A stretch of 38,805 nt of DNA from a virus. The position numbers and the translations under genes were made by a program. The notes under the pieces are model-generated. The model worked only from the letters and a program-made list of their open reading frames with translations, was not told the DNA's origin and ran no database searches. Positions 19,624-38,805 of the stretch are shown here, in pieces (positions within the stretch are counted from its first letter, which is position 1; the number at the start of each line of letters is the position of its first letter). The DNA lies in UHGV virus genome UHGV-0123934; one strand, written 5' to 3'.

Positions 19624-19946
19624 CCTACGAGCGGTGGTTCGCCATCGCCGTCGGGCAGATGGGACTGGCACCCGAAGCCTTCGAACGCCTGACGCCCGCC
19701 GAGTTCATCTATGCGTGGCTCGGCTGGGCGAAACGCGAGGAAGACCGGCAGCGGCAGGCATGGGAGCGCGAACGGTGGGCGGTATGGGTTACGACTTGCA
19801 TCCAGCTTGACCGCAAAGACCGCCGACCGATGACCGAGATGTTCCCGCTGCCGTGGGAGGAACCGACGGCTCCCGCAAAGCAAGAACCGACCATGCAGGA
19901 ACGCATGGAACGAATCGAAGAAATGAAACGATGTATCCGAAAATAA
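19264..19946 (+). CDS. tail assembly chaperone G-T fusion via predicted -1 programmed ribosomal frameshift
   Basis: A_AAA_AAC heptamer at 19581-19587 in the gpG frame; the -1 frame is open from the slip site through ORF 19659..19946 (KKRETPDDGEPQAVTYERWFAIAVGQMGLAPEAFERL...). Confidence 0.55.
19581..19587 (+). other. -1 slippery heptanucleotide A_AAA_AAC
   Basis: Codons tca aaa aac in the gpG frame; manual frame tracing shows no stop in the -1 frame downstream. Confidence 0.55.
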
Positions 19947-20440
19947 CCTTGATTATCCTGACGATCGCAGCCAGCGGCTGCTCTCCGCTCCGAAGCACGC
20001 GATCCGAGCGGCACGAAACGCTTGCCATCTCCGACTCGACTGTTACGGAACTGGTCCGGCAGGAGTTCGGGCGGCAGATCGGAACGCTCCGCCGAACCGT
20101 CGTGGAGTTTTATCCGCCGACGGAATATCCGGAACCGAGCGACGATCGATTCCCGAATCCGATCGATACGCTCCGTGCCGTTCTTTCGCCTCCGAAAATT
20201 CCGGCGGCGAGCGCTTCCCGACAGCCGGTCAAACGCATCTCCTATACCGAGGTATCGATGCAGAATGACCGAACTATCCTTATCGACAGCATTTCGCATA
20301 GCCGCATCAACACGGCAGCCCGCAACGACGTGCAGGAGCAGACCGACGAGCAACCATCCTCCGGTGTCGCGTGGCTCAAATGGGCGACGGCGCTCGTCGC
20401 ACTGACGCTTCTGCTGCTCTTATTCCTCAAACTCCGATAA
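19931..20440 (+). CDS. putative lipoprotein with C-terminal membrane anchor
   Basis: ATG 19931 inside ORF 19853..20440; signal peptide with lipobox LTIAASGC; C-terminal hydrophobic helix WATALVALTLLLLLFL. Confidence 0.5.
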   Translation: MYPKITLIILTIAASGCSPLRSTRSERHETLAISDSTVTELVRQEFGRQIGTLRRTVVEFYPPTEYPEPSDDRFPNPIDTLRAVLSPPKIPAASASRQPVKRISYTEVSMQNDRTILIDSISHSRINTAARNDVQEQTDEQPSSGVAWLKWATALVALTLLLLLFLKLR

Positions 20441-20450
20441 CCGAACCCAT

Positions 20451-21233
20451 ATGGCAAGATTGAAAACTCCGATTTCATACTATGGCGGCAAGCAGATGCT
20501 TTTGAAGCATATCCTGCCGCTGATTCCCGAACATACGCTCTACACGGAAGCCTTCTGCGGCGGCTGCGCCGTGCTGTTCGCCAAGCCGCCCGCGCAGTGC
20601 GAAGTCATCAACGACACGAACACCGAATTGGTGAACTTCTACCGCGTGGCGCAGACCCAGTATGCGGCACTCAAGGCGATGATCGACGCGACGCTCCACA
20701 GCCGCGAGATACACGCGCACGCACGGCATATCAACGAGCATCCGTCGTTCTTCACGCCCGTCGAGCGGGCTTGGGCTGTATGGGTCTGCACGAAGTTGGG
20801 CTTCGCCTCGATGATCGACGGAACGTTCGGCTACGACCGCAGCGGTACGACGACGCTGAAACTCCGCAATGCGAAAGAGGCCTTCACCGAGGAGTTGTGC
20901 GGACGCCTCGGCCGCGTTACGGTCGAGTGCGAGGACGGCATCGATGTCATCCGCCGCTACGACTGTCCCGAGGCGTTCCACTTCGTCGATCCGCCCTATG
21001 TCGGCAGCGACTGCGGACACTACAACGGTACGTTCGACGAGGAGGATTTTTCGAGGCTGCTCGACACGCTCGCAACGGTCGAAGGGAAGTTCATGCTCAC
21101 GATGTTTCCGCACGAGAAGATCGAACGCCTCGCCGCCCGGCACGGCTGGACGATCCATCGGCTCGACCGCACCATCACCGCCTCGAAAGTTTCCCGCCGC
21201 CGGCAGGAGGAGTGGATTACGACGAACTACTGA
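20451..21233 (+). CDS. dam: DNA adenine methyltransferase (Dam-like, alpha class)
   Basis: N-terminal ISYYGGKQMLLKHILPLIP...EAFCGGCAVLF and motif IV FVDPPY. Confidence 0.85.
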   Translation: MARLKTPISYYGGKQMLLKHILPLIPEHTLYTEAFCGGCAVLFAKPPAQCEVINDTNTELVNFYRVAQTQYAALKAMIDATLHSREIHAHARHINEHPSFFTPVERAWAVWVCTKLGFASMIDGTFGYDRSGTTTLKLRNAKEAFTEELCGRLGRVTVECEDGIDVIRRYDCPEAFHFVDPPYVGSDCGHYNGTFDEEDFSRLLDTLATVEGKFMLTMFPHEKIERLAARHGWTIHRLDRTITASKVSRRRQEEWITTNY

Positions 21234-21240
21234 TACCGAC

Positions 21241-22017
21241 GTGGGTACATTCGCTTACGATAACCCCGCTTACATCGCTTCGTGCTCGTTCGGCAAGGAT
21301 TCGATCGCTACGATCCTCCTTGCCCTCGAATATGGCGAGCCGCTCGATGCCGCTGTCTTTTCGGAGGTGATGTTCGACCATCGGCGCAATATCAGCGGCG
21401 AGATGCCCGAACACATCGAGTGGATCTATTCGACGGCGATTCCGCGTCTTGCCGCCTTGGGCGTACGGGTCGATGTCGTCCGTTCGGAGAAAGACTATCT
21501 TACGTTATTCCATACGGTCATAGGGAGCAGTACGCATAAGGGTATGCTGCGCGGCTGGCTCATCGGCGGCAAGTGCTGCGCCAATCGCGACCTCAAAATC
21601 CGGCCTATACATCGCTATTATGCCCGTTATCGAGAGCAAGGCATCGTGCAGTACGTCGGCATCGCGGCCGACGAACCGAGACGCCTCGCGCGGATGCAGG
21701 ACAAAGGGTATAACCGTAAAACGAGTCTGCTCGCCAAGTACGGGTACACCGAGGCGGACGCCCGACGCAAGTGCGAAGAATACGGTCTGCTGTCGCCTCT
21801 CTACCGCACCTCGCATCGGGGCGGTTGCTGGTTCTGCCCCAACTGTCGCATTCCGGTCTTCGCCGAACTGCGCCGCCGCCATCCTGAATTGTGGCGTGAA
21901 CTGCAACTGCTTTCGAAGGTCGGAAATAAGTCCTCCGAAGGTTTCAAATACGGGCTGACTTTCGAGGAGGTCGAGCGGCGGATGGATCTCTTCGAACACT
22001 CACCGACGCCATTCTAA
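21241..22017 (+). CDS. PP-loop ATPase, PAPS reductase/QueC-like family protein
   Basis: PP-loop SFGKDS near the N-terminus, C-terminal Cys cluster GGCWFCPNC; start uncertain (GTG 21241 is the first start after the dam stop). Confidence 0.65.
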   Translation: MGTFAYDNPAYIASCSFGKDSIATILLALEYGEPLDAAVFSEVMFDHRRNISGEMPEHIEWIYSTAIPRLAALGVRVDVVRSEKDYLTLFHTVIGSSTHKGMLRGWLIGGKCCANRDLKIRPIHRYYARYREQGIVQYVGIAADEPRRLARMQDKGYNRKTSLLAKYGYTEADARRKCEEYGLLSPLYRTSHRGGCWFCPNCRIPVFAELRRRHPELWRELQLLSKVGNKSSEGFKYGLTFEEVERRMDLFEHSPTPF

Positions 22018-22020
22018 ACA

Positions 22021-22105
22021 ACTGAAAATAAATACGATAATAGTCGCCGAATAACTTGCGTGTTCCGAATAACGATGTTATGTTTGTCATGCAATAAACA
22101 ACTAA
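22021..22105 (+). promoter_or_regulatory. Promoter/leader repeat copy 1 (-33 TTG 22056-22058, -7 TAtgTTTG 22079-22086)
   Basis: Conserved about 85-bp element also at 22497, 23311, 23957 and 24588; motif spacing 20 nt fits the Bacteroidota sigma promoter pattern. Confidence 0.6.
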
Positions 22106-22118
22106 AATAGAGCGAATT

Positions 22119-22422
22119 ATGAAAAAGACAGTCATCGTGAAAGGCGAGCGTCGCAAGGTAGAATTCGAGTATCGAGTAATCGATAAATTGGTTAGTTGCC
22201 AAAAAGCAAACGATGGGATAAGCAGGGGGATGGCTTCCGGTCGAAACCTATTACCACGAAGCCGTTGCCATTATCGACGGTGTAGAATATCCGAGCGTTC
22301 GACGCTGGCATACCAATGGCGGCAGGTATTCGGAACAGTTCTTTTACAACGGACATTTCTATGATTCGTATAAGAAAATGATCGAGCGCATTCTCGAATC
22401 GGCAGACGAAAGTAACTCTTGA
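22119..22422 (+). pseudogene. small gene apparently frameshifted at a G5 run (or a sequencing indel)
   Basis: Frame 0 ORF 22119..22364 loses protein-like character after the G5 run at 22225-22229; the +1 frame continues as a convincing sequence (WLPVETYYHEAVAIIDGVEYPSVRRWHTNGGRYSEQFFYNGHFYDSYKKMIERILESADESNS) to a stop at 22420-22422. Confidence 0.45.
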
Positions 22423-22444
22423 ACCTCGATGGAAGCAGATGGAA

Positions 22445-22475
22445 AAACAGGCTCCGTACGGAGCCTGTTTCGATC
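22445..22475 (+). terminator. putative intrinsic terminator
   Basis: Perfect 10-bp stem aacaggctcc/ggagcctgtt with gtac loop, followed by tttcg. Confidence 0.5.
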
Positions 22476-22496
22476 TTTCGCTGTAAGCGTAAATAA

Positions 22497-22580
22497 CTGA
22501 AAATAAATATGATAATAGTTACCGGATAACTTGTGTGTTCCGAATAACGATGTTATGTTTGCAGTACGATAAACAACTGA
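22497..22580 (+). promoter_or_regulatory. Promoter/leader repeat copy 2 (-7 TAtgTTTG 22554-22561)
   Basis: Near-identical to copy 1. Confidence 0.6.
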
Positions 22581-22606
22581 ATAATAGACGATTAAAACAC
22601 CCGAAC

Positions 22607-23029
22607 ATGACAAGTGCACAGGCAAAACAGATCGCATCGAACTATATGCGGCAGCAGAGCGATTATGTATTTTCGGCGGTAACGGTTAAAAGCCTCGCTC
22701 CGGCGAACGGACCAGTCAAGGTGTGGCTCACCACCGAAGACGACTACGGGGACGAACTGATCGTCGAGGTCGAGATGGACCCGCAGTCGAATGAGATCCG
22801 CTGGAAGAAGATCTGCAACACGGGACGCCTATCCGAATATCTGAAGCCGGCTACTCGGATCGATAAACTTTCGGCGGGGCAGCGCTTCCGGCTGCAAGGC
22901 GACTGCGTGGTTTACGAGTTCGTGGACAATGTAAAGGACCGCAGCAATATTCCCTATATCATCCGACGGGCAGACCGATCCGGTTGCGTATCGAGAGTCG
23001 GATGGCAGGAAGTTTTTCCTATCGAGTAA
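22607..23029 (+). CDS. hypothetical small protein
   Basis: ATG 22607 downstream of promoter copy 2 (ORF track start 22535 lies inside the promoter repeat). Confidence 0.5.
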   Translation: MTSAQAKQIASNYMRQQSDYVFSAVTVKSLAPANGPVKVWLTTEDDYGDELIVEVEMDPQSNEIRWKKICNTGRLSEYLKPATRIDKLSAGQRFRLQGDCVVYEFVDNVKDRSNIPYIIRRADRSGCVSRVGWQEVFPIE

Positions 23030-23081
23030 CCGATAACCGCGCACCTTGCCGAAAGGCAGGTGCGCATAAAACGATACGACG

Positions 23082-23312
23082 ATGAAACTCCGCCGAACGA
23101 AAACCGGAACTTACACGATTGCTGGTATTACCGCAACTCAATATCGCACCCTTGCGGCAGTGCTTATGACCGCCGATGAGCGTTGCTTCGACGAACAGGA
23201 CGAGGACGGCAACTATTACAGCAACGACGATTTCGTCTGCTCGCTCGATGGCGATGAACGGGTGGCTTTGCGACAGGTGTGCGACGCACTTCGGCAACGT
23301 GTAAAATATTGA
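23082..23312 (+). CDS. hypothetical small acidic protein
   Basis: 76-aa ORF; preceded by hairpin with GAAA loop (23037-23065). Confidence 0.4.
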   Translation: MKLRRTKTGTYTIAGITATQYRTLAAVLMTADERCFDEQDEDGNYYSNDDFVCSLDGDERVALRQVCDALRQRVKY

Positions 23313-23390
23313 AAATAAATGCGATAATAATTAATGGAAAACTTGCGTGTCCCGAATTATGATGCCATCTTTGCAGTGCAATAAACAACT
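23311..23390 (+). promoter_or_regulatory. Promoter/leader repeat copy 3 (degenerate -7)
   Basis: Shares aacttgcgtgt and gcagtgcaataaacaact cores with the other copies. Confidence 0.5.
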
Positions 23391-23405
23391 AATATAGAGC
23401 GCATT

Positions 23406-23738
23406 ATGAGTACAAGAGCAAGAATCGGCGTAAGACTTCCCGACGGAAAAATCAAAAGCATTCATATATGGCGGGACGGACATCCCGATACGTTGGGCGA
23501 AACATTGTCAGCGCACTACAACACATTGGAAACGGCAATGGCACTGGTCGAACGAGGCAACATAATCGATGTGGAAGCACGTCTCGAAGAGTGCCGGTTC
23601 GAGAAATCGAATGAACGGTACGATACCGAGCCTCGGATTTATGAATCGGTTGCCGCCTATGAACGAGAAATCGAGGAGGATATATGTTACAAATATCTCT
23701 ATCGGGACGGCAAGTGGGAATACCGGGCGGTCGATTAG
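23406..23738 (+). CDS. hypothetical small protein
   Basis: 110-aa ORF with ATG start downstream of promoter copy 3. Confidence 0.5.
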   Translation: MSTRARIGVRLPDGKIKSIHIWRDGHPDTLGETLSAHYNTLETAMALVERGNIIDVEARLEECRFEKSNERYDTEPRIYESVAAYEREIEEDICYKYLYRDGKWEYRAVD

Positions 23739-23772
23739 TAACCGACTTCCGATCGTAAGGAGCGAATGCTCC

Positions 23773-23802
23773 GAGCCTCCGACGGGAGGCTTTCTCTCGT
23801 TT
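23773..23802 (+). terminator. putative intrinsic terminator
   Basis: Stem agcctcc/ggaggct, loop gacg, then T-rich ttctctcgttt. Confidence 0.5.
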
Positions 23803-23821
23803 CATTCAGTTGTTTATTGCG

Positions 23822-23856
23822 ACCGGAGCCGTGCATCGTGTACGACTCCGGTTTTC
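23822..23856 (+). terminator. putative intrinsic terminator preceded by inverted leader motif cagttgtttattgc (23807-23820)
   Basis: Stem accggag/ctccggt followed by tttt; paralogous to the element at 25080-25133. Confidence 0.5.
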
Positions 23857-23956
23857 GTTCAAAGGCGGGACATTGTTTCTGCAACGGATCTTCGGCAGCA
23901 TGTATATTTACCATATGGGACATGCTTGATAAATAGTTGATATTCTTTGAATTAAG

Positions 23957-24014
23957 TTGCCGATAAACTTGCGCGTTCCGAATAATGATGTTATGTTTGC
24001 AGTGCAATAAACAA
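23957..24014 (+). promoter_or_regulatory. Promoter/leader repeat copy 4 (-7 TAtgTTTG 23992-23999)
   Basis: Core gccgataaacttgcgcgttccgaataatgatgttatgtttgcagtgcaataaacaa. Confidence 0.6.
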
Positions 24015-24044
24015 TTGAACTACAATCTATTAAACGACTCGATT

Positions 24045-24263
24045 ATGAATACTGCGAATCGAAAAAGAACGGAAATCGACGCCGAACTCGACCGGTTGGA
24101 GGTCGAATTCGAGAAGAACCGCAAGGAGATGCAACGCCTTGCCGACGAAAACAGACGTGCCGGCAACCGCTACGGCGAATTATCGAATGCGAATCACGAC
24201 ATCAACAACCGGATCCTCACATTGCTCGCTGAGCGTTGGGAATCGGAAGAGACGGCTGATTGA
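24045..24263 (+). CDS. hypothetical small coiled-coil protein
   Basis: ATG 24045 downstream of promoter copy 4. Confidence 0.45.
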   Translation: MNTANRKRTEIDAELDRLEVEFEKNRKEMQRLADENRRAGNRYGELSNANHDINNRILTLLAERWESEETAD

Positions 24264-24338
24264 CGAAACGAGAGACGACCCCGCCGAGAAATCTTCCTCG
24301 GCGGGGTTAAGACCCGAAACCGGAAAACACATAAAGAG

Positions 24339-24536
24339 ATGAAAACGATGAATGCAAATGCAACGGTAGGCGACAAGATTCGCATTATCCATCTTCGCGA
24401 CGAGGACAGCCGTTACGACGGCAAGGTGGGAACGATCGAGTTCATCGACTCGCTCGGGCAATTGCACGGTACATGGGGCGGGTTGGCAGTCATTCCCGAA
24501 GTCGATCGGTTCGTAATTATCGAGAAAGCGGAATAA
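24339..24536 (+). CDS. hypothetical small protein
   Basis: 65-aa ORF; preceded by 10-bp perfect stem hairpin 24279-24306 (no U tract). Confidence 0.4.
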   Translation: MKTMNANATVGDKIRIIHLRDEDSRYDGKVGTIEFIDSLGQLHGTWGGLAVIPEVDRFVIIEKAE

Positions 24537-24587
24537 TCGCCTGCAACGATAATGCTCGGTTCCGTCATCTTTTCTGAACGTCTAATT

Positions 24588-24672
24588 TACTGAAAATAAA
24601 TACGATAATAGCCGCCGAACAACTTGCATGTTCCGAATAACGATGTTATGTTTGCAGTACGATAAACAACTA
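24588..24672 (+). promoter_or_regulatory. Promoter/leader repeat copy 5 (-7 TAtgTTTG 24647-24654)
   Basis: Near-identical to copies 1 and 2. Confidence 0.6.
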
Positions 24673-24687
24673 AAAAAAGAGCGAATT

Positions 24688-24975
24688 ATGAGAACGAACA
24701 TCGACCGGTTTTTAGAGAGATTCCCGAAGAATGCCACGGATTGGGCGCAGGCGACGGACGAGGTGCACGATATGGCTCGCAAGGCTCGCGAATTGTTGGA
24801 AGAGTACGAAGGCGTAATCGTCGAACCGGTAAATTTCCAGGCTATCGAGACCCCGGCCGAGTGGAATACCGAAGGTCGCGAGTTCATCCTGACGAATTTC
24901 GATCGCATGGCGGATAGAACCAAAGAGCGCTTCTACGACTACTTCCGCGAGTGGTTCGAAGGCGAAGAGGAATAG
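24688..24975 (+). CDS. hypothetical small acidic protein
   Basis: ATG 24688 downstream of promoter copy 5. Confidence 0.5.
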   Translation: MRTNIDRFLERFPKNATDWAQATDEVHDMARKARELLEEYEGVIVEPVNFQAIETPAEWNTEGREFILTNFDRMADRTKERFYDYFREWFEGEEE

Positions 24976-25094
24976 ACCGACGCACGGATGCTCCTCGTTC
25001 AAGCTGCGGGGAGCATCCGTCCTAACCCCGGAGCAGGGTTGCACACGTCTCTTTCGATAGGAAATCTATCGTGCTCCATCAGTTGTTTATTGCA

Positions 25095-25133
25095 GCCGGA
25101 GCCGCATTATGTGCGGCTCCGGTATTTTATTTT
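25095..25133 (+). terminator. intrinsic terminator preceded by inverted leader motif cagttgtttattgca (25080-25094)
   Basis: Perfect 11-bp stem ccggagccgca/tgcggctccgg, 5-nt loop, then attttatttt. Confidence 0.7.
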
Positions 25134-25175
25134 GTATGTAAATAATGATTAAATTTGTAACGAAAACAGAATACG

Positions 25176-26216
25176 ATGAAAGCCTATACCTATATCGAAC
25201 ACGGGCGGTTCGAGCTGCTCGACAAGCCGGAACCCGCCTTGCAGGACCCTCGCGACGCCATCGTGCGCGTGACGCTCGCGAGCATTTGTACCAGCGACCT
25301 GCATATCAAGCACGGCAGCGTACCCCGCGCCATTGAGGGCATCACCGTCGGCCACGAGATGGTCGGCATCGTCGAGGAGGTCGGGTCGGAGGTGCGCAGC
25401 GTAAAGGTCGGCGACCGCGTGACGGTCAACGTCGAGACCTTCTGCGGCGAATGCTTCTTCTGCAAGCGCGGCTACGTGAACAACTGCACCGATCCCGACG
25501 GAGGCTGGGCACTTGGCTGCCGCATCGACGGCGGGCAGGCGGAGTATGTCCGCGTGCCGCATGCCGATCAAGGGTTGAACCGCATTCCCGATACGGTGAG
25601 CGACGAGCAGGCATTGTTCGTGGGCGATATTCTGGCTACAGGTTATTGGGCGGCGAAGATTTCGGAGATTGCGCCCGACGACACGGTCCTGATTATCGGT
25701 GCCGGACCGACGGGTATCTGCACGCTGCTTTGCGCAAGATTGAAGCGCCCGAAGCGAATCATCGTCTGCGAAAAATCGCCCGAACGGCGGCGATTCGTGC
25801 GGGAACACTATCCCGAGGTGCTGACGGTCGCACCGGAGGAGTGTCGCGAGGCGGTTTATGCGAACAGCGACCGTGGTGGCGCCGACGTCGTGCTGGAGGT
25901 GGCCGGTGCGGAGGATACGTTTCGCCTGGCGTGGGAGTGCGCCCGCTCCAATGCGACGGTTGTTATTGTTGCGCTCTACGACCGGCCGCAGATGTTGCCG
26001 CTGCCCGACATGTACGGCAAGAACCTCACCTTCAAGACGGGCGGCGTAGATGGCTGCGACTGCGCCGAGATACTCCGGCTGATCGAGGCGGGCGAGATTG
26101 ACACCACGCCGCTCATCACGCACTGTTATCCGCTCGGCCGCATCGCCGAGGCATACGACCTCTTCGAAAACCGCCGCGACGGAGCGATCAAGGTGGCTAT
26201 CGATTGTACCGAATAG
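25176..26216 (+). CDS. zinc-dependent alcohol dehydrogenase family protein (MDR superfamily)
   Basis: Catalytic-zinc signature GHEMVGIVEEVG, structural-zinc Cys cluster CGECFFCKRGYVNNC, Rossmann motif LIIGAGPTG. Confidence 0.85.
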   Translation: MKAYTYIEHGRFELLDKPEPALQDPRDAIVRVTLASICTSDLHIKHGSVPRAIEGITVGHEMVGIVEEVGSEVRSVKVGDRVTVNVETFCGECFFCKRGYVNNCTDPDGGWALGCRIDGGQAEYVRVPHADQGLNRIPDTVSDEQALFVGDILATGYWAAKISEIAPDDTVLIIGAGPTGICTLLCARLKRPKRIIVCEKSPERRRFVREHYPEVLTVAPEECREAVYANSDRGGADVVLEVAGAEDTFRLAWECARSNATVVIVALYDRPQMLPLPDMYGKNLTFKTGGVDGCDCAEILRLIEAGEIDTTPLITHCYPLGRIAEAYDLFENRRDGAIKVAIDCTE

Positions 26217-26241
26217 AGGTATGTATCCGCGCGATAATATT

Positions 26242-26943
26242 TCACGTCAGCGTCCACCCCTTGTCTGTTGCGATCGCTTTTTGGATAGCATTCAGTTTCG
26301 CGAGGTTCTTCGCTCCGATATTGCAGGTCTTGCCATTGCCGGTATCGGATAGCGCGTTCAACAGGAATACCAAACTCTCTACCATGAGTTTCGGACAGCC
26401 GTTCACGGCGATGTCTACATTGACGGGGCCGTCGATGATTACCGTTTCGAGTGCGGAGCAGGAGACGAACGTCGTGTCGATCTTCGATGTTACCTTGCTG
26501 AAGTCAAGTCTTCCGCCGATTTTACGCAGGCTCTTGCAGCCGTGGAACATCTCCGAAGCGGAAGTAATGCGCGAGGTGTCCAGTCCGCCGATCTCCTGCA
26601 AGTTCGTACAACCGTAGAAAGCATACATCATATTCGCGACGTTCGAGGTGTCGAGCGTCGGCACACGCTCCAGCGCCGTACAGCCGTAGCACATCTGATA
26701 CATCGAATCGAACGACGCTGTGTCGAGTGCCGGAAATACCGACATCGTCGTATTGCCCCGAAAGAGCTGGTAGCCGTTGCGGATCTGATTCATTCCGCTG
26801 GTGCTGTCCACCAATGCGACTTTATCGACGAGCGATACCAACGTCTCTTCGTCGGTTATCGCCACGCCTTTGTCGCGTAGCGCCCCGGCAAGGTGCTGCC
26901 GCAGCGCATCGAGCCGCAAAACGAGTGAAGTAAAGTCTGCCAT
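26242..26943 (-). CDS. BspA-type leucine-rich repeat protein (putative tail-associated adhesin/receptor-binding component)
   Basis: Tandem repeats of the F.GC..L..I...DTS....M..F.GC type (MCYGCTALERVPTLDTSNVANMMYAFYGCTNLQEIGGLDTSRITSASEMFHGCKSLRKIG). Confidence 0.65.
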   Translation of the reverse strand: MADFTSLVLRLDALRQHLAGALRDKGVAITDEETLVSLVDKVALVDSTSGMNQIRNGYQLFRGNTTMSVFPALDTASFDSMYQMCYGCTALERVPTLDTSNVANMMYAFYGCTNLQEIGGLDTSRITSASEMFHGCKSLRKIGGRLDFSKVTSKIDTTFVSCSALETVIIDGPVNVDIAVNGCPKLMVESLVFLLNALSDTGNGKTCNIGAKNLAKLNAIQKAIATDKGWTLT

Positions 26944-26946: not shown

Positions 26947-27180
26947 CTATCCGATAATATGGTTCAGTGCCTCCTCGATGCCCGTCAGTCCGAGCGAAGC
27001 GGTCATCGCATCGACCAACGTCGCATAAGTTACGGCAGCACCCGTACCGTTGCGGTCGATTTCGATAAGGTCGGTGGCTGCCAAAGTCGTCACCTTCGGG
27101 AGTTGAGAGAGCGTGATCGTATCGGTATCCGATCCGGTTGCAAGCCGTCCTATAATCGCCCCTGTTTGTTCTGTTGCCAT
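26947..27180 (-). CDS. hypothetical small protein (tail fibre module)
   Basis: 77-aa ORF tightly packed between the tail fibre and LRR genes. Confidence 0.4.
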   Translation of the reverse strand: MATEQTGAIIGRLATGSDTDTITLSQLPKVTTLAATDLIEIDRNGTGAAVTYATLVDAMTASLGLTGIEEALNHIIG

Positions 27181-30181: not shown

Positions 30182-30255
30182 TATTTTAAGTACTATCATA
30201 AGTTTTATGGAGTAGATTCTCATTCTTTTTTGCTGGAAATTGCGAAATAAAGAAG

Positions 30256-30279: not shown

Positions 30280-30287
30280 AATATAAT

Positions 30288-32780
30288 ATGGACGCTAAGA
30301 TTGAAAAACTTAAATTCAGCCTGCGACACAATAATCCTAATTTATTTGTTGGTGCAGGGTTTTCGTTAGGTGCTACTCTGCAAAATAATGCACCGATTCC
30401 AAGTGGAGCGACATTAAAAGATGGCATTATTACAAATATCCTTAAATACCCGAAATCCAGCCCGGAATATAATGAACTTTCCATATTACCATTGTGTAAA
30501 GTTTGTACTATTACAGTCGCAGAAAAAGGTCGTGAAGAACTTTATTCTTATTTACAGTCCATATATCAAAATGTGCAACCAGCCGAATTCCATAAATCAT
30601 ATATTAAATATCCTTGGCATAACATATATTCGACCAATATCGATGATGTAATTGAAAATGCTTGTGCAATTGAGAATGTGCCTATTATTATATATAATGA
30701 GCCACATAACCCTAAACCAAAACAAGATAAAAGTCTTGTATTATATAAATTGCATGGCTGTGTTAATAACATGGACGCAGGCGTTATTTTTGATGAGGAA
30801 GAATATATCGATTCTATTTTAGATAGAACTGACCATAGATTTGGTAATTTATCTATTGAATTTCAAACAAAAGATTTTGTTTTCGTTGGATCTGATTTTG
30901 ATGATTTTAACATTAATTATTATTTAAGTTTATACTCAGCAAATGGTACAGATTCAGGCCGAGGAAATTTGTTTTTTATTAATCCAAAGCCATCATATGC
31001 TTTTAAGAGTAGGATAAAGCAGGTTGGAGGAATTTTGATAGAATTCAATGCGAAGCAATTTGCAGAATTGATTGATTCCATAAGATTTGATTTAGAGACA
31101 ATAAACGAAACCAAACTGTCGTATGATGGTTATGTGCGTGTCAAACAATTAAAAGACAATTTGTCGTCAAATCATTACGATTCGGATTTATATCTTGGAG
31201 CGCGTCCGAAATGGACAGATATTTTTTACGATTGGGATATTATTTTATCGCCCGCAATTAAGACATTCATTTCTACATTGGATGATTTTGAAATCGATGA
31301 TAAGAATACTTTGGTTTATGCTATACACGGGCGAGGATATTCCGGGAAGTCTGTACTAATAAAAAGACTTGCTAACATTCTCATTGATGCAAATTATGAA
31401 ATCATTTCATTTGAAGGAAAAAATTTCAACTCCAATAGATTCTTACATTATATAAATAAATCACAATATCACAAGTTTGCATTAATTGTTGATGATGCCA
31501 GTTATTTATATAGCCAGTTTGAATATTTGTGCAAGAAAGTATCTGGAAAAATTAAACTGTGTATTATATCGGCTTCAAGAATATTTCTTCATAACAAGCG
31601 AAAATATAGTCTTGTAAATATAAATAGCGTAGAATACGAGATGACAATAACTATAGATGAAGCTATTGCATCTGATATTATTAACAAATTAAACCAAAGA
31701 GGCTATTTAGGACGTATTCTTCGTTCCTGCCCAGATAAAGATTCTCAAATTCAATTCGCAAAAAATAATACGGATATAGCATCTGCTATTTTTGCTATTA
31801 CATATGGGAAAGATTTCCAACGCCGTTTTGCTGCAGATGTCAATAATATTATCAAAGATGGCAATTATAGAGATCCGCTAATCAAATTGGCAATTTTTCA
31901 GAAAATGCAATTAGCATATTGCCCTCGAGAGTTATTCGTTAGATTATATGGAAAGCGAATTATAGGGATATTGCAACGTATGGAGAATATTTTAAGAGAT
32001 GCGCATTCTCCACGCCTTGAGCTAAAAAATGATTTTATTGGAGATATTATCCTTAAAAATTCAACATCTGTAGAAATAATAAATAGTTTGAAAGAGCTAT
32101 TGGTATATATTTCATCAATGGTTGAAAACACCTCCAATTCTTACTGGAATGAGATTCAGTCTATATTAATGAGAGATAAGTTAGTTCGTGATGTCTTAAA
32201 TATAAAACCTTCTGATTTTAAGCAAATGCTATATGAAATAAGAGAATATTATTATGACAATTACAACTATTGGCTTCAATTAGGAATTGCGGAGCAATTG
32301 GCAGGAGATTATGATAAGGCGTTAATTCATTTTAGCCAAGCACAAATATACGGCCCCAAATCCTATATGGTAAAAAACGCAATTGGTCGCAATTATATAT
32401 TTCAGGCAATTAAAGAATTGGATAATGATATTGCTATAAAATTATTTAATGAAGGGAAATGTATTTTATTTGAATTAATTAAAAATAGAGAAGAATATCA
32501 AGCGAAAGCATATTCAACGCATACATATATTGCTGGATTGATAAGGTTTTATAAACGAAAGCACAATTTGAAAATTTCCTCAAAAGAAGCTAAAGAAGCA
32601 CAGTCTCTTATCAATACAATACGCATAAAATATAAAGGAGATCCAATATTTGAAAATTTAAACTCGACTTTCACTAAATTTATTTTACAACATTCTTCGA
32701 ATATGACATTAAATTTACAAGAGTTACAAATGTCATATAGAAATTGTGTAGATGAAGTGGAATTCATAGATATGGATTAG
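30288..32780 (+). CDS. SIR2-like domain protein fused to P-loop NTPase and helical repeat domain (SIR2-STAND / Avs5-like candidate antiphage protein)
   Basis: SIR2-family motifs LFVGAGFSLGA, IYSTNIDDVIE, LYKLHGCV, FVFVGSDFDDF; Walker A IHGRGYSGKS and Walker B FALIVDDA; C-terminal about 450 aa helical/TPR-like; strongly AT-rich. Confidence 0.75.
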   Translation: MDAKIEKLKFSLRHNNPNLFVGAGFSLGATLQNNAPIPSGATLKDGIITNILKYPKSSPEYNELSILPLCKVCTITVAEKGREELYSYLQSIYQNVQPAEFHKSYIKYPWHNIYSTNIDDVIENACAIENVPIIIYNEPHNPKPKQDKSLVLYKLHGCVNNMDAGVIFDEEEYIDSILDRTDHRFGNLSIEFQTKDFVFVGSDFDDFNINYYLSLYSANGTDSGRGNLFFINPKPSYAFKSRIKQVGGILIEFNAKQFAELIDSIRFDLETINETKLSYDGYVRVKQLKDNLSSNHYDSDLYLGARPKWTDIFYDWDIILSPAIKTFISTLDDFEIDDKNTLVYAIHGRGYSGKSVLIKRLANILIDANYEIISFEGKNFNSNRFLHYINKSQYHKFALIVDDASYLYSQFEYLCKKVSGKIKLCIISASRIFLHNKRKYSLVNINSVEYEMTITIDEAIASDIINKLNQRGYLGRILRSCPDKDSQIQFAKNNTDIASAIFAITYGKDFQRRFAADVNNIIKDGNYRDPLIKLAIFQKMQLAYCPRELFVRLYGKRIIGILQRMENILRDAHSPRLELKNDFIGDIILKNSTSVEIINSLKELLVYISSMVENTSNSYWNEIQSILMRDKLVRDVLNIKPSDFKQMLYEIREYYYDNYNYWLQLGIAEQLAGDYDKALIHFSQAQIYGPKSYMVKNAIGRNYIFQAIKELDNDIAIKLFNEGKCILFELIKNREEYQAKAYSTHTYIAGLIRFYKRKHNLKISSKEAKEAQSLINTIRIKYKGDPIFENLNSTFTKFILQHSSNMTLNLQELQMSYRNCVDEVEFIDMD

Positions 32781-35137
32781 AACCCACCCAACACCTCCGA
32801 CTTGAAGTTCTCTTTTCCGAGAACATACACCAAATCCCGACCCTTGGCAGTCAATTGACCGCCGAGGGTTATTCGTAGGTTCTGCGTGCTGCCGCTCATC
32901 GGAAGCATCGCCTGCAACTTCGACAGCGGCGCGATGACTTCGGGATCCGTACCGGCATTGGGATTGTCGCCGACCATCGCATAGGTAGGACCGTATGCCA
33001 GACCGCCGTTGGCCAATGCCGGCACGCTCTTTTCCGCATTCTTGTTGATGAGCGCCGTCATCACGGCTGCCGCCGCGACCATCGCAGCACCGATGGCGAT
33101 CGCCGCCCATGGGTTCGCGAGGACGGATTTCAACGCCGACTTGAAGGCGATGATCATCACGCCGAACTCGATGAGTTGCGAGCCGATATTTTTCAGAAAA
33201 GAGGCGAACTGCGTCAGGATCGCTTTCATCAGCCCTCCGAATCCCAAATCGCCGGCAATGATCTGCCCGATAGCCTCCGCCGCTGCGACGATGCTGTCGG
33301 CCATAAACTTCGACACCTGCTGATCGAAGCGCGTCATCACCTCCGCAATCGTGGCGTGGACATGCTCCAATGCCGCCGAGAACGACCAGCCTTTCGCCGT
33401 CAGTGCCGTCGTGTAGTTCTCGACGGTCGAGACCGTATCGGCGACGTGCTCCTGCAAGTATGCGCTGTTGTCGTCCGCCCAGCCGTATAACCCTTCGCGT
33501 ACCGCACCGAATATCGCCTGCATCTGCTGCGCGTATTGCGATGTTACGGGTTTCAGATCGCCCATTTTGAGTTTCGGCGCCGGCAGTTCCAACTCGAAGC
33601 CCTCGGGCAGAATGCCGTTCATCTTGACGACGGGTTTCAGGTCTTCGGGCTTGATATTCTTGATCCGCTCCAACTCTTTTTGCAGCTTCTCGATCTCGGC
33701 GTTCGCCGCAGCGATATCTTCGACAGTCGATTCGGGCAGTAGTTTCTTCTTTTCGAGGGCCTCGATCCGCGCCTGCAATTTACCGATGATGCCCGTGCTT
33801 TGTTCCGTCTGCGCGTTGGTTCCGGCGATGGACTTCATCAGCTCCTCGGTCTGCTTGCGAGCCTCGTCCGTTACCTTGTCCAGTTCGGCCTGCGCCTCGG
33901 CCGCCTTCTTCTCCGTTTCGCGTTTCTTTTCGATGGCTGCCGTCAGCAGGTCGTACTCCTTGCGCAAGGGTGCGAGTTTCGATTCGTCGGGTACTTTCTG
34001 CAAGGTAAAACCGGCGACCAATCCCCCGAAATTCGGAACCATCCGCGTCTTGGTCGTCGTGGCGATGATCTCTTTCTGCTCGGCGATATTTTCCTGCAAC
34101 TTGCGTTCGAGCTCGTCGAGCGATTCGGTCTCTGCCATCTCGTCGATCATCTTCTGCTTTTGGATGCGGGCATAGGCAAACGCCGCACCGAGCGCGAGGA
34201 TCGCCGCCATAATCAACCCGACAGGCGAGAGCAATGCCGTAAATCCTGCCGCCAGCATCGGCAGCACCTTGATCACGGCGCCGATTCCGAGCGAAAGGGG
34301 ACCGACCGCTGCGACCAGCCCCGCCACGACGACGATCGTCTGCATCATCGCCGGCGACATCGATTGCAACATCTGCACGACCGTCGAGAGCGCACCCGCC
34401 ACTTTCATCGCGAAAGGCATGATGGCCGCACCGATCTGTTCCAAGAAGTCGCCCCATGCGTTCTTGAGCTGCTGCACGGCTCCGAGTCCCGTTCGTGCGG
34501 CGGCTTCGGCCTGCCCGCCGAACTTGCGCTCCAACTCGTCGAGGATCATCGCCTGCGCTCTGGCTATGTCGCCCGTCTCGGCGAGTTTCTTGATCACCTC
34601 CGCCTGCTCCTTGGAGAAGGCTATGCCGGCACGCGACAGCGACGAGAGCTTCGTCGCGGGATCGGAGAGCGCCTTGCCCAACTGCAACGACGCCGCACCC
34701 AAATCCATCTCCAACGCCGTGGCGAGGTCCAATGCCAACGCCTGCGTGCGCTTGAAGTTCTCGCCTGTGATATTGGTAAAAGCCAACAGGCGGGCGGTGG
34801 ATTTGTCGAGAATCGTCTCGTCGCCGAAAAGCGTTTTGCTCTGCAACTCCGAAGCGTAGTCGGCCAGCTGCCGGAAGTTGTAACCGACAGCCCGATTCGT
34901 AACCTTGAGCGCCTGCTGCACCTTCGCCTCGGCTTTGGCCTGCACGTCGGCCAAGTGCAGCGACACGCCGCCCAATGCCGCAAGGGGCGCGGTGAGCTTC
35001 AGCGAGAGCGACTTGCCGACGGAGGTCAACTTCTTTTCGAGCGAGCCGAGACCTTTCTCGACCTGCTGCGCCTTCTGCTGGAACTCATACGAGTCGGCTC
35101 CGATCTTGATAAGCAGATCGGCGATTCTTCGGGACAT
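32777..35137 (-). CDS. phage tail tape measure protein (TP901-family-like)
   Basis: 786-aa protein with coiled-coil segments, central hydrophobic helices (IVVVAGLVAAVGPLSLGIGAV, GLIMAAILALGAAFAYA) and a TP901-type N-terminal core. Confidence 0.85.
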   Translation of the reverse strand: MSRRIADLLIKIGADSYEFQQKAQQVEKGLGSLEKKLTSVGKSLSLKLTAPLAALGGVSLHLADVQAKAEAKVQQALKVTNRAVGYNFRQLADYASELQSKTLFGDETILDKSTARLLAFTNITGENFKRTQALALDLATALEMDLGAASLQLGKALSDPATKLSSLSRAGIAFSKEQAEVIKKLAETGDIARAQAMILDELERKFGGQAEAAARTGLGAVQQLKNAWGDFLEQIGAAIMPFAMKVAGALSTVVQMLQSMSPAMMQTIVVVAGLVAAVGPLSLGIGAVIKVLPMLAAGFTALLSPVGLIMAAILALGAAFAYARIQKQKMIDEMAETESLDELERKLQENIAEQKEIIATTTKTRMVPNFGGLVAGFTLQKVPDESKLAPLRKEYDLLTAAIEKKRETEKKAAEAQAELDKVTDEARKQTEELMKSIAGTNAQTEQSTGIIGKLQARIEALEKKKLLPESTVEDIAAANAEIEKLQKELERIKNIKPEDLKPVVKMNGILPEGFELELPAPKLKMGDLKPVTSQYAQQMQAIFGAVREGLYGWADDNSAYLQEHVADTVSTVENYTTALTAKGWSFSAALEHVHATIAEVMTRFDQQVSKFMADSIVAAAEAIGQIIAGDLGFGGLMKAILTQFASFLKNIGSQLIEFGVMIIAFKSALKSVLANPWAAIAIGAAMVAAAAVMTALINKNAEKSVPALANGGLAYGPTYAMVGDNPNAGTDPEVIAPLSKLQAMLPMSGSTQNLRITLGGQLTAKGRDLVYVLGKENFKSEVLGGF

Positions 35138-35143: not shown

Positions 35144-35551
35144 TTAGGGTTTGTGTTGCAGATAGAGCATCCAGCCGGCCTCGACATCCGATAGTACCGC
35201 CGACCGCCCGTTTTCCACACGCGATATAGCCGCCACGATGGGGATCATCGTTTCGCCCTCCTGCGTATCTACCGGCTCGTCGGCGCCGATGCCCGACCAC
35301 TCGGCCACGCAACGGATATAGTTCTCGGTATGGTTCTCGACGGGCGGAGCGTAGCGCGAGATCATCTGCCGGATTGTCCGGTAACCCTTGCGGGAGTAGG
35401 AGTCCAGCAGCACGAACATCGCGCGGTAGCCCCACGCCATCGTCTCGAATTGCTTGAATGCCGTATCGCGCGAGGGCGCAACTTCGCCCAGATACTTCGT
35501 CGCCGACCGGCGGATATTGCCGGGATTACGATTGCTCAGTCCTCTGCTCAT
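35144..35551 (-). CDS. hypothetical protein (NPGNIR motif; possible lysis or virion protein)
   Basis: ATG at 35551 (upstream part of ORF 35144..35755 is low-complexity S/R-rich and overlaps the neighbouring gene). Confidence 0.4.
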   Translation of the reverse strand: MSRGLSNRNPGNIRRSATKYLGEVAPSRDTAFKQFETMAWGYRAMFVLLDSYSRKGYRTIRQMISRYAPPVENHTENYIRCVAEWSGIGADEPVDTQEGETMIPIVAAISRVENGRSAVLSDVEAGWMLYLQHKP

Positions 35552-35555
35552 TGCT

Positions 35556-35930
35556 TTATGATTTTCGGTTATTCTCGTCGTTCTCTTTGCGCTTGCGCTC
35601 CAACTCGGCTCTTTTGAGCAAGACCGGGCAATGTTCGGGCGGCGTTTCGCACTTGTAGGCCTGTCGGATGACGATGCGGCTGCGATCGATTTCCACGTCC
35701 TTGTGCTCGATGATGATTTCGAGTTTGCCGACCTTCTCTTCGAGTTTCTCCACACGCCCGTCCAGCCGCGTGATCTGCTCGGACTGGATCGCTACGACTT
35801 TCTCCGTGTTCGCTAATTCGGCGGAGTCGGCGGCCGCGTTCTCCTTGCGTTTCTTCGCGTTGAAAAAGAGAATCGTTCCCGCCAGACCGCTGGCGAGAAT
35901 GAAGTTCAGAATGATGGATAGTGTTTCCAT
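35556..35930 (-). CDS. membrane-anchored coiled-coil protein (holin/spanin-like candidate)
   Basis: N-terminal hydrophobic helix LSIILNFILASGLAGTILFF followed by a charged coiled coil. Confidence 0.45.
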   Translation of the reverse strand: METLSIILNFILASGLAGTILFFNAKKRKENAAADSAELANTEKVVAIQSEQITRLDGRVEKLEEKVGKLEIIIEHKDVEIDRSRIVIRQAYKCETPPEHCPVLLKRAELERKRKENDENNRKS

Positions 35931-35940
35931 AGTATTGCAC

Positions 35941-38805
35941 TTATTCAGGAATGAATTTGTAAATCGCCCGTTCGCGCACGATATAGAGGTCGCCGTAGAT
36001 GAAGAATAATCCCATGATGTTCTCGCCCCAGCCGGCGACGTTCCGGACGTCGGTCGTCGTGTCGTCGCGGAAGTTCCGGATGAAGATACCGTCGTCGTAG
36101 GAGTGCACGACCTCGCTCATCGTATGGTCGGCATGATCCGCCCAGCGTCCCAACCGCCGGAGCAGCGTCCGCTCGGTAATTGAATCCCGCCGGTAGAACC
36201 ACAGCATATCGTCGGCGTTGATGCCGATATAGTTGTCGGAGATGGTGACGATCTGCTCGCCCGCAGCGAATTGCAGCATCTTGCAGGGCTGGTGGAACCG
36301 TTTGTCGTGCAAATAGGCGCCCTGCGAGGTATTCACGACGATCGTATTTTCCGTGCGCCGCAGGGCGAGGATCGCACCCGACATCGGCGTACCCTCGTAG
36401 GCATATCCCCGTCCGCGATAGCCGGTCGAGGCGTCGGGCGAAACGTACTTGCACTCCGGGCGCGAGAGGTAACGATAGGTACGATAGTTCGGATCCTCGT
36501 CCTCTGCCGTGCGGGCGCTGCGTCCGCCGGCATTGCCGCCCCGCGGACCGATATACTGCCGGTAAGATTTCAGGATATGGATATACCCGTCCATGTAGGT
36601 CGCGACGTTGCGGTACTCCTCCGGCGGGACGTATATCCGTTCGACCGTGCCGCGATAGTCGAGGTAGCGGACCTCTTTCCCGTCCACCGCAACGAACCCC
36701 TCGTCCGCTTCGTACATCTCGAAGGACGTCGTGCTGCGATAGATCTCCCGCACCTGCCGCGTAGCGGTATCGAAGGCATAGACCGTCTTTTTATCGGCGG
36801 ACTGGAGCAGCAGTCGGTTCAGGCAGCGGATCGCCTTGCCGACCGTGAAGGAGAGCGTCGCGACCGCTATGCAGTCGTCGCCCTTCGGCGGCTTCTCCGT
36901 CGCGAGCAGATGCGGCATCTCCGTGAGTTCGCTGTTATAGGAGTCGTCGAGGGCATTCAGTTCGATGGAGTTCAGATAATAAGCGGCGTTCAGGAACTTG
37001 TCGTCCCGAACCACCGTATTCATATCGATATGCTGCCCCGTGAAGATCTCGCCCGTGATACGGCGGCTCGGCAGCTGCTTGTACCGCAATGCTCCCTGTA
37101 CGATATGGCCGACGAGCGTGTCGTAGTCGTTCCGATCTTTCGTATGCCAGATGCGCGTGGGATTGCCGGCGGCATCGAGGTAGTAGAGCGCATAGAGCAG
37201 CCGGTCGTTCGGAATGGCGGGAATATCGCTCACGGGCAACGTTACGGACATATCGACGTTGTTCGCGGGATCGACGAGCGACTCGTAGCGCAAACCCTTG
37301 TCGTAGCTGTCGCCCGCATCGATCGAGAGCGTCATCTTGCGGAATGCGGCGCTCTCCTGATAGCCCGAGGTGCGGCCGCTCGGGTTGCCGAAGCGGTCGG
37401 TATAGGTCGTGATCTTGCCTATGAGCGTCTGCCGGATGAAGAACCGCCACTCGCCGTCGCAGGGGATGCCGTCGATCTCGATCTTCATATTCTGCTCGTT
37501 GCCGGTCTTGACCGTACTCGCGATCTCCCCGTCGGAGGACTGCACCCACGAGCCGCTCTCGGTGAGGCTGTATGTCGCCTTCTCGCCGACGATGCGGACG
37601 CCGTAATGCACCGCGACATCGACGCTCTCGTTCGGGCGGTAAACGCCCAATCCCCATTCCCGATGGAAGGTCTGCAACCCGAACTCCCATACGAGCGGGA
37701 AGTTGCACTGCTCGACGGAGAAGCCCCGAGTTACGACCTCCGCACCCCGATAGGCATCTTCGCCGCTGAAATAGAGTTCCTCCCCGCTCTTCACGGAGAC
37801 GAAGCCGTGCGGATCCGTCCAAGCGTCGGGATCGTAGAACCCGATGCGGGCGATCAGGTTGTCGAGGCTCTTGTTCTTTACATCGACCGAGACCTTGCGC
37901 AGCGCAGGGACGATGTCGAGCGTCGAACTTCCCTCGATGTGCAGGTCGCCCGTCCACATACCGTCGATGCGCTCGCGGGCCGCCGACGTGACGACCTGCG
38001 CACCGGTATGGATCACGAGCCGCAGTCCGCTGCCCGTAACGATCCTCCCGACGGGATGCTCCGTGCCGACGCGGTAGAAATTCACGGGACGGGCAGTTCG
38101 GTAGAGCGACACGGCGCGGCGGATATGCAGGGCGCCGTTCGACTGGAAGATCTGTCCGGCGAACGGACGCAGACACAGTTCGAGGATGTCGCGATAGGTA
38201 GGCTCCTCGTAGACGTAATAGAGCCGTTCGAGGTCGATATAGGTTTGACGGAGCGGAGAGGCGTTCTCGTCCATACCCTCGGCATACAGGTCCATCCAGT
38301 CCGCCGTATCGAGATCCAACTCCAACAGGTCGATGCAGGAGGAGAGCAGTTCCCACAGCGACCGTCTGCCCGCGATACCGATATGTACGAGGTCGCGGAA
38401 CGGAATGCTCGACAAGAGGTTGAAGCCGTCCACGGCCTTGATCGTGACGGTATAAGGCGGAGCCGTGAAGTTCTCGGAGTAGAGATCGGAGGTGACGTAG
38501 CCCCGCCAGTAGAGCTGCCGATTGCGGAAGATCGAGACACGAAAATAACGGGGATCGGAGGTGAACAGAGCCAGGTAATGGAAATTCTCCTTGCAGAGGA
38601 TGTTGATGGTCGCCTCCGAAGCCTTGACCGGCACGTAGAACTCGTCGCCCCGTTTCTCCCACGTGATCTGCAACGGCGTACCGCCGTCGAAGGCCATCTC
38701 CTCCGACGGACCTGCGTACCCCCGCTCCGAAATCTCCACGCGCCACAAGACGCCCTTGTACTTAGAGCGAAGTTCAGCGTAATATTTCAGACCAAAAATC
38801 GCCAC
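35941..38805 (-). CDS. large phage structural protein (over 950 aa), N-terminus may lie beyond the window edge
   Basis: Long ORF with diverse, aromatic-rich composition, unlike the Arg/Gly/Pro-rich alternative frame; upstream of the tape measure in the same orientation. Confidence 0.5.
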   Translation of the reverse strand: MAIFGLKYYAELRSKYKGVLWRVEISERGYAGPSEEMAFDGGTPLQITWEKRGDEFYVPVKASEATINILCKENFHYLALFTSDPRYFRVSIFRNRQLYWRGYVTSDLYSENFTAPPYTVTIKAVDGFNLLSSIPFRDLVHIGIAGRRSLWELLSSCIDLLELDLDTADWMDLYAEGMDENASPLRQTYIDLERLYYVYEEPTYRDILELCLRPFAGQIFQSNGALHIRRAVSLYRTARPVNFYRVGTEHPVGRIVTGSGLRLVIHTGAQVVTSAARERIDGMWTGDLHIEGSSTLDIVPALRKVSVDVKNKSLDNLIARIGFYDPDAWTDPHGFVSVKSGEELYFSGEDAYRGAEVVTRGFSVEQCNFPLVWEFGLQTFHREWGLGVYRPNESVDVAVHYGVRIVGEKATYSLTESGSWVQSSDGEIASTVKTGNEQNMKIEIDGIPCDGEWRFFIRQTLIGKITTYTDRFGNPSGRTSGYQESAAFRKMTLSIDAGDSYDKGLRYESLVDPANNVDMSVTLPVSDIPAIPNDRLLYALYYLDAAGNPTRIWHTKDRNDYDTLVGHIVQGALRYKQLPSRRITGEIFTGQHIDMNTVVRDDKFLNAAYYLNSIELNALDDSYNSELTEMPHLLATEKPPKGDDCIAVATLSFTVGKAIRCLNRLLLQSADKKTVYAFDTATRQVREIYRSTTSFEMYEADEGFVAVDGKEVRYLDYRGTVERIYVPPEEYRNVATYMDGYIHILKSYRQYIGPRGGNAGGRSARTAEDEDPNYRTYRYLSRPECKYVSPDASTGYRGRGYAYEGTPMSGAILALRRTENTIVVNTSQGAYLHDKRFHQPCKMLQFAAGEQIVTISDNYIGINADDMLWFYRRDSITERTLLRRLGRWADHADHTMSEVVHSYDDGIFIRNFRDDTTTDVRNVAGWGENIMGLFFIYGDLYIVRERAIYKFIPE

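Follow-up and report, generated by a model that had tools for sequence, protein, structure and literature searches.

Two orientations of a tail and lysis gene block among relatives of an Alistipes prophage

The tail module of canonical siphoviruses, such as the lambda/HK97-like phages and Salinibacter phage M8CR30-2, starts with the major tail protein (MTP), continues with the chaperones G and GT and their -1 slippery heptamer, and has the tape measure protein (TMP) straight after the chaperones, followed by Dit and Tal. The virus genome UHGV-0123934, analysed here over a stretch of 38,805 nucleotides (nt; referred to as the window), shares with this module the succession of MTP and G/GT with the heptamer, a TMP with the usual PHROG signature, distal fibre genes and a holin/lysin pair nearby, but its TMP gene lies 12.8 kb off and on the opposite strand. 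About 5-6 kb of accessory genes split the chaperones from TMP, and a homologue of the gene in the Dit position as well as lysis-like genes precede TMP. In our view, this layout probably goes back to a fixed evolutionary inversion of a self-contained tail/lysis operon in one intact prophage and is a case of ordinary phage mosaicism.

Tail-fibre-bearing segments present in two orientations among related phages are also familiar from Mu G, P1 C, e14 P, p15B Min and the R64 shufflons. Segments of the Mu G/P1 C type measure 1.8-4.2 kb, are framed by inverted crossover sites next to the recombinase gene (Gin, Cin or Rci), and exchange fibre C-terminal exons behind a fixed promoter, whereas the locus described here lacks inverted repeats, neither form shares its junctions with the other, and an entire operon has moved together with its own promoter-like motifs. 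With the mosaic model of Hendrix and Hatfull our phage shares sharp edges of homology at start codons, stop codons and a terminator, cargo at the junctions, and an integrase and att site that are swapped independently (tRNA-Asp in the lineage of the window, tRNA-Lys in the collinear relatives at 97% identity). It differs in that a whole operon of 12.6 kb has changed its orientation and not its content, with both orientations occurring among phages that are about 95% identical. Since a megablast search of the region from 14.6 to 38.8 kb against GenBank phages gave no match, the phage has no annotated close relative, and in a literature search neither the phage group nor its promoter motif turned up. 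The relatives found in GTDB are assigned to Alistipes.

One tail block in two arrangements

An earlier note on this DNA had placed MTP and the chaperones on the plus strand (18.8-19.9 kb), the tape measure, fibre and LRR genes on the minus strand (26.2-35.1 kb), and a protein of more than 950 amino acids (aa) plus two small genes upstream of TMP on the minus strand. Gene calls and strands agree with this, the latter three being open reading frames (ORFs) of 954, 124 and 135 aa. The ORF listing and profile searches thus put the head and tail-tube genes on one strand and the tail-tip/tape-measure/lysis block on the other, with an accessory block of 6.3 kb on the plus strand between the chaperones and the minus-strand block. 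The genes and junction elements concerned are the following:

18818-19258, plus: major tail protein (phrog_1407, E 1.5e-23)
19264-19623, plus: chaperone G, first ORF of the G/GT pair
19587/19659-19946, plus: chaperone T extension (phrog_16333 matches the second ORF)
25095-25123, plus: strong terminator closing the accessory block, at the junction of the proposed inversion on the fixed side
25124-26241, plus: filler of junction 1, with an AT-rich promoter region, the ADH gene and a 25-nt spacer to the LRR stop codon, in the inverted form only
25176-26216, plus: Zn-dependent alcohol dehydrogenase, ADH (Pfam ADH_N, ADH_zinc_N)
26242-26943, minus: LRR/DUF285 protein (domain match)
26947-27180, minus: 77-aa ORF (ORF call)
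27185-29317, minus, ORF open to 29503: tail fibre (PDB tail-collar-fibre match, E 0.055)
32777-35137, minus: TMP, 786 aa (phrog_27166, E 2.5e-54)
35144-35551, minus: 135-aa peptidoglycan-hydrolase/endolysin-like protein (PDB 7q47, E 2e-9)
35556-35930, minus: 124-aa transmembrane and coiled-coil protein, holin-like by its sequence
35941-38805, minus: 954-aa virion protein, first gene of the inverted block (phrog_30639, phrog_23570)

All window proteins were compared by tblastn with the IMG/VR and GTDB loci that had been recovered with TMP, MTP and ADH, revealing that the 12.6-kb block from the 954-aa gene to the LRR gene occurs in two orientations among the relatives. In the collinear form, represented by seven contigs, MTP, G, GT, lipoprotein, Dam, small genes, 954-aa, holin-like and lysin-like genes, TMP, fibre, 77-aa ORF and LRR all lie on the same strand and are followed by a convergent integrase. 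This form was found in the IMG/VR contigs 3300029052_000259, 3300039336_000213, 3300029021_000226, 3300045988_183553, 3300023312_000366 and 3300029710_000317 and in the Bacteroidales metagenome-assembled genome SUYV01000006.1 (L050), the most divergent relative found, with a TMP of 54% aa identity; the group at 92% identity is collinear as well. Three of the collinear contigs belong to the 97% clade and show 93-96% nt identity to the window across head, MTP, accessory region and tail block, only the block being reversed. The inverted form is carried by at least 15 other contigs at 97%, 80%, about 68% and 67% identity, and 24 of 24 contigs examined with an identical TMP have the inverted neighbourhood. 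As these 24 contigs and many independent IMG/VR and GTDB assemblies agree on the inverted layout, it is not an assembly artefact.

The orientation of the integrase relative to the head module is equal in both forms and that of the block alone differs, so that circular permutation cannot yield the difference. MTP, which is 75-99% conserved in the relatives, is grouped with the head module in both arrangements, and LRR, 77-aa ORF and fibre keep their mutual order in all relatives. In every relative, whether inverted or collinear, the accessory genes separate the chaperones from TMP, and likewise the 954-aa, holin-like and lysin-like genes stand upstream of TMP, also in the most divergent relative. 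The inversion, ADH, ORF6N and SIR2 are, by comparison, lineage-specific features.

The earlier note had left the choice between an inversion with insertions, two juxtaposed prophage remnants and an atypical native organisation. The first is borne out by relatives at 93-96% nt identity that carry the block in collinear orientation, with SIR2, ADH and ORF6N as lineage-specific additions, and the second is contradicted by the single att-bounded element set out below. The third holds in part, namely for the position of the accessory block and for the three genes in front of TMP. The alignment to related prophages, for which the note had taken a shared gene order in intact relatives as the sign of a native layout, gave a divided answer as well: collinear relatives exist, and the inverted order is stably inherited at 67-80% identity.

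Over its N-terminal 250 aa, the 954-aa protein shows homology to the gene directly after TMP in Salinibacter phage M8CR30-2, and a weaker match was obtained with PHG11b_43 of Flavobacterium phage 11b, which sits a few genes past an unannotated 612-aa ORF, a possible TMP of phage 11b. The family-wide split between chaperones and TMP, together with the 954-aa gene in front of TMP, indicates that the whole family is rearranged in comparison with canonical Bacteroidota siphoviruses.

Both halves lie within one prophage. Flanks beyond the window were taken from the 104-kb contig ERZ28575436 scaffold_144, located by exact protein matches, and the window is part of a single att-bounded temperate siphovirus-type Alistipes prophage of about 46.7 kb that is integrated at tRNA-Asp. 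To the right of the window follow an ORF6N anti-repressor, a 437-aa tyrosine integrase, attR at tRNA-Asp and then host genes; to the left, the element runs 5.65 kb further with cargo until attL, where 15-16 nt of the tRNA-Asp 3' end recur (L056:4344-4358). Two contigs from different host backgrounds (L056 and L057) are 99.9% identical inside the att point and unrelated outside, and at the right end L001 and L002 likewise diverge from position 3942. The element has one integrase at its end and one pair of direct att repeats at the tRNA gene, and it carries single copies of an O-like initiator, a DnaC-like loader, HNH, terS, terL, portal, S78 protease, HK97-type capsid protein, connectors, MTP, G/GT, TMP, fibre and lysin.

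Junctions, proposed late units and the probable origin of the inverted form

Between the window and the 97% collinear phages, homology stops at the start codon of the 954-aa gene, which is the final codon of the window, at the LRR stop codon, and just past the terminator 25095-25123 (at about 25122). Up to the block ends, identity amounts to 90-100% per 100 nt, apart from one interval of 83%, and drops to background level within the next 100 nt; a gradient of identity toward the block ends, looked for as a trace of old junctions with gene flow, was not seen, the profile being flat before it collapses. No inverted repeats were detected at the junctions of either the inverted (L001, window) or the collinear (L005, L007, L011) forms; the earlier note had suggested a search for them at its breakpoints. 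The best inverted-repeat pairs across block and flanks were at chance level (at most 31 nt, about 71% match), and the only core common to the four junctions, the 7-nt AGGTATG, was discarded as chance. Two of the breakpoints put forward in the earlier note stand, namely 26.2 kb and a point beyond 38.8 kb, situated some 70 nt outside the window. The lipoprotein gene at 19.9 kb drops out, as the order MTP-G-GT-lipoprotein-Dam is the same in both arrangements, and so does SIR2, which is cargo in a variable slot within the block.

Neither arrangement has junction sequences in common with the other, and independent assemblies of one arrangement agree in theirs. In the inverted form, one junction bears ADH and the other ORF6N, while the 97% collinear form carries neither of them and has a different integrase next to tRNA-Lys; this latter type of integrase also adjoins the start of the 954-aa gene in an inverted 80% relative. 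ADH is absent in collinear relatives and, where present, always adjoins the LRR stop codon, also in the divergent L076 and where the LRR protein is only 67% and the fibre only 70% identical. Contigs with ADH abutting the start of the 954-aa gene, the expected product of a flip in place, were not found in IMG/VR. Beyond this phage, ADH (75-84% aa identity) occurs in other IMG/VR contigs (L066-L075) without any other gene of the phage, which suggests either independently mobile cargo or host DNA captured in viral bins. In two contigs of the inverted type (L008:1-100 and L009:70-170), an insertion of about 75 nt follows the first 11 nt of the 954-aa gene, GTGGCGATTTT; the frame resumes past the insertion, so that the N-terminus of the protein is changed.

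A conserved motif points to separate late transcription units. It has the form G(G/C/A)(G/A)AC-WWWGT-nTC, followed after about 21 nt by a TAnnTTTG-like -7 box, and was located at these sites:

10240-10290 (approximately), plus: spacing variant before the portal gene (sequence match)
14625-14668, plus: upstream of the HK97-type capsid gene (sequence match)
23867-23910, plus: g34 region (sequence match)
29331-29374, minus: upstream of the fibre gene, GGGACTTTGTATCCC, 21 nt, TATTTTCA, at the same site in relatives
L001:6271-6314: upstream of the 954-aa gene, 19-62 nt past the window end (sequence match)

The start codons of the capsid, 954-aa and fibre genes follow the motif at a distance of 25-30 nt, and it also precedes MTP in relatives without the AbiE insertion. 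Four matches were counted in the extended window, with none expected from 200 composition-matched shuffles, and there are three to four per genome, kept in collinear and inverted relatives alike. The tail block holds two copies, one before the 954-aa gene and one before the fibre. In phage Mu, several late promoters (Plys, PI, PP and Pmom) each depend on the activator C (PMC4461284). The two systems have in common an operator-like motif at a fixed distance from a weak -10/-7-type box before several late units, and they differ in the sequence of the motif and in the host promoter type (TAnnTTTG of Bacteroidota). By analogy with the C-dependent promoters of Mu, the motif is plausibly a candidate phage late promoter with an activator site, and as such a testable one for this group of uncultured Alistipes phages.

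Based on this, the late genes would be organised not as one long operon but as several self-contained transcription units, each behind a family-specific late-promoter-like element. One such unit would be the 12.6-kb block composed of P954, the 954-aa gene, holin-like and endolysin-like genes, TMP, the cargo slot, Pfibre, fibre, 77-aa ORF and LRR, which here runs opposite to the unit of head, MTP and chaperones. Its breakpoints would lie in intergenic DNA, one after the terminator 25095-25123 and one between the block and the integrase module, and ADH and ORF6N would later have filled one junction each. The phage family would then have kept both orientations, with homologous recombination holding block and flanks about 95% identical between the forms. 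As the block would bring along promoters of its own, and as the proteins of a tail assemble in trans, its orientation may come without functional cost, and both forms are presumably viable phages. The split of the late genes into independently promoted units is likely the reason why either orientation is tolerated. The same modular layout may also accommodate defence cargo on the opposite strand, namely SIR2-STAND, AbiEii and a restriction-modification (R-M) system.

Sharp boundaries, private junctions and the lack of inverted repeats fit fixed rearrangements at module boundaries together with mosaicism, and not a site-specific switch. Some observations weigh against a simple history of this kind. 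Within the 97% clade, the collinear members form no subclade of their own for any segment, and pairwise distances are star-like (3-8%), so that a single old inversion would need extensive recombination, or else the inversion happened more than once. Furthermore, the 70-77 nt upstream of the 954-aa gene are non-homologous between both 97% forms, except for the motif, so that the change was no clean two-break flip of the present-day sequences. As for the polarity, we infer that the collinear form is ancestral from one divergent relative and from the analogy with canonical siphoviruses.

The opposite polarity, with the inverted layout as the native and ancestral one and the collinear relatives derived from it, appears unlikely to us. 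The inverted form is the commoner one and occurs, with the same junction partners (integrase next to the 954-aa gene, ADH next to LRR), in lineages of 97%, 80%, about 68% and 67% identity, but the most divergent relative (TMP 54%) and the 92% group are collinear, and canonical Bacteroidota siphoviruses, e.g., M8CR30-2, hold all structural genes on one strand. Mosaicism makes rooting unreliable, and this alternative would therefore alter the polarity alone, not the nature of the rearrangement.

Very unlikely, and without positive support, is a programmed invertible segment, i.e., a phase-variation switch like Mu G or P1 C, yet as large as a whole tail operon, operated by the XerC/D-like gene (3644-4579) or by the terminal integrase. 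Such a switch would agree with both orientations occurring among about 95% identical phages and with collinear members scattered in the clade. It would also agree with two encoded tyrosine recombinases, with an integrase gene adjoining one junction and with the partly palindromic operator-like motif before the 954-aa gene and the fibre. The block ends, however, have no inverted repeats in either form, the junction sequences differ wholly between the forms, and neither type's junctions were found in contigs of the other type. In addition, ADH and ORF6N are confined to the inverted form, the 24 contigs with identical TMP all share one orientation, and the inverted form with ADH persists where LRR protein and fibre have diverged to 67% and 70% identity. 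Pfam scans of the window ORFs revealed no serine invertase or resolvase domain, and neither the integrase at the junction nor the XerC/D-like recombinase is tied to the block.

We give similarly little weight to a variant in which the block is a flippable or transposable cassette, moved by a phage tyrosine recombinase for which the partly palindromic GGGAC-N5-ATCCC elements before the 954-aa gene and the fibre would serve as sites. If it were true, it would amount to a host-range switch on the scale of an operon, with the tail-tip operon re-oriented or exchanged between co-resident Alistipes phages, and would account for the interleaving of collinear and inverted forms in a clade of about 95% identity. 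Finally, the two juxtaposed remnants of the earlier note, a head/MTP one on the plus strand and a tail/integrase one on the minus strand, are scarcely credible: the modules do converge, 6 kb of non-structural genes plus an ADH that resembles a housekeeping gene separate them, GC content is mosaic and truncated copies exist elsewhere (e.g., L053 from Alistipes timonensis, and L046), but a single att pair encloses everything, with host flanks diverging exactly at the repeats, there is one terminal integrase and one each of TMP, MTP, portal, terL and MCP, the halves are complementary and not redundant, as the plus part has G/GT without TMP and the minus part TMP without MTP, and more than 20 independent contigs carry this gene set as a whole, some of them in collinear order.

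With the fixed inversion as the preferred explanation, the family offers a well-sampled case of temperate gut phages in which a complete tail/tape-measure/lysis operon is tolerated in either orientation. For prophage annotation, this means that a convergent layout of head and tail genes should not be taken as two remnants, and it bears on the synteny-based classification of phages in Bacteroidota. It also shows where defence cargo (SIR2-STAND, AbiEii, R-M) may lodge within structural regions. As a new example of familiar phage mosaicism, it leaves current ideas on phage genome evolution unchanged.

Head genes, cargo slots and the prophage ends

The remaining structural genes of the window all lie on the plus strand and were assigned by profile searches:

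5846-8003, plus: terS and terL
10309-11529, plus: portal
before the capsid gene, plus: S78 protease
14623-15894, plus: HK97-type capsid protein (MCP)
plus strand: connector proteins

Downstream of them, a slippery heptamer A_AAA_AAC is read in the zero frame at 19581-19587 directly from the sequence, and from 19587 the -1 frame runs without a stop into the second chaperone ORF; with this canonical -1 slippery site, the ORFs 19264-19623 and 19659-19946 form a textbook pair of G/GT chaperones. In the minus-strand block, the order of transcription is 954-aa, 124-aa and 135-aa genes, TMP, fibre, 77-aa ORF and LRR. The 954-aa protein gave no sequence match to solved structures, and the endolysin-like/holin-like pair (35144-35930) contains a match to phrog_873 (E 1.7e-40).

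The accessory/early-type block on the plus strand (19931-25123), the position of which is conserved in both arrangements, consists of the following genes and is completed by several small ones:

19931-20440, plus: lipoprotein
20451-21233, plus: Dam methylase
21241-22017, plus: PAPS-reductase-like gene

Within it, the region 22006-24677 displays five direct copies of a repeat of about 104 nt with a mutual identity of 62-85%. Each copy holds a canonical Bacteroidota-type TTG...TAnnTTTG promoter with a common ribosome-site/ATG context and precedes one of five starts of small genes of unknown function.

Cargo on the strand opposite to the block lies between fibre and TMP:

29672-30181, plus: 169-aa ORF inside the block (ORF call)
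30288-32780, plus: SIR2-STAND NTPase gene (Pfam SIR2_2, nSTAND_NTPase5; GC 31%)

The cargo region 29672-32782 has a GC content of 0.30-0.35. The variable slot proper comprises 30183-32782, where the 97% siblings carry 0.5-1.4 kb of other DNA, and L013, an 80% relative, has a different opposite-strand ORF of 308 aa there (L013:7420-8346), the N-terminus of which looks TIR-like. A layout of autonomous units would account for the tolerated cargo islands in this slot as well as between terL and portal, between protease and MCP, and in front of MTP.

Between the prohead protease and MCP, a low-GC island (12237-14582; 34-40%), present in some relatives only, carries two MjaI-like restriction endonuclease ORFs on the plus strand and an N6/N4 DNA methylase on the minus strand. 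An AbiEii nucleotidyltransferase toxin gene and an HTH/DUF6922 antitoxin-like gene are located between the neck proteins and MTP (17589-18762, minus), and the pair is missing in many relatives. The low-GC slot between terL and portal (8435-10250) contains an unknown 225-aa ORF and an HTH-M78 (ImmA/IrrE-like) protein; in a sibling prophage, the same slot (L058:18304-19730) is occupied by a reverse transcriptase (RVT_1) and an HTH gene. Between the replication and packaging modules (3211-5734), we identified an HNH endonuclease (3211-3510), the XerC/D-like tyrosine recombinase already mentioned (3644-4579) and a Fic-domain protein on the minus strand (4847-5734), which replaces two naive ORF calls on the plus strand (4664-5722).

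Decayed copies of the inverted form were also encountered. In L053 (Alistipes timonensis DSM 25383), a truncated portal gene directly adjoins the tail block, and in L046 a truncated terS gene does so; these joints imply large deletions between the convergent modules.

At the prophage ends, the attL arm (L056:4344-10000) encodes an ArsR-family HTH protein, DsbD-like and thioredoxin-like proteins, two ArsP-type permeases and a hexapeptide transferase/acetyltransferase, and this cargo of metal/redox type precedes an RteC-like regulator at the window start. On the other side, two full tRNA-Asp(GTC) genes, 495 nt apart, adjoin the integrase (L001:3400-4045). The DNA downstream of the first of them and the host flank at the opposite prophage end share 90% identity, which suggests a tandem tRNA locus or the scar of an earlier insertion and excision.

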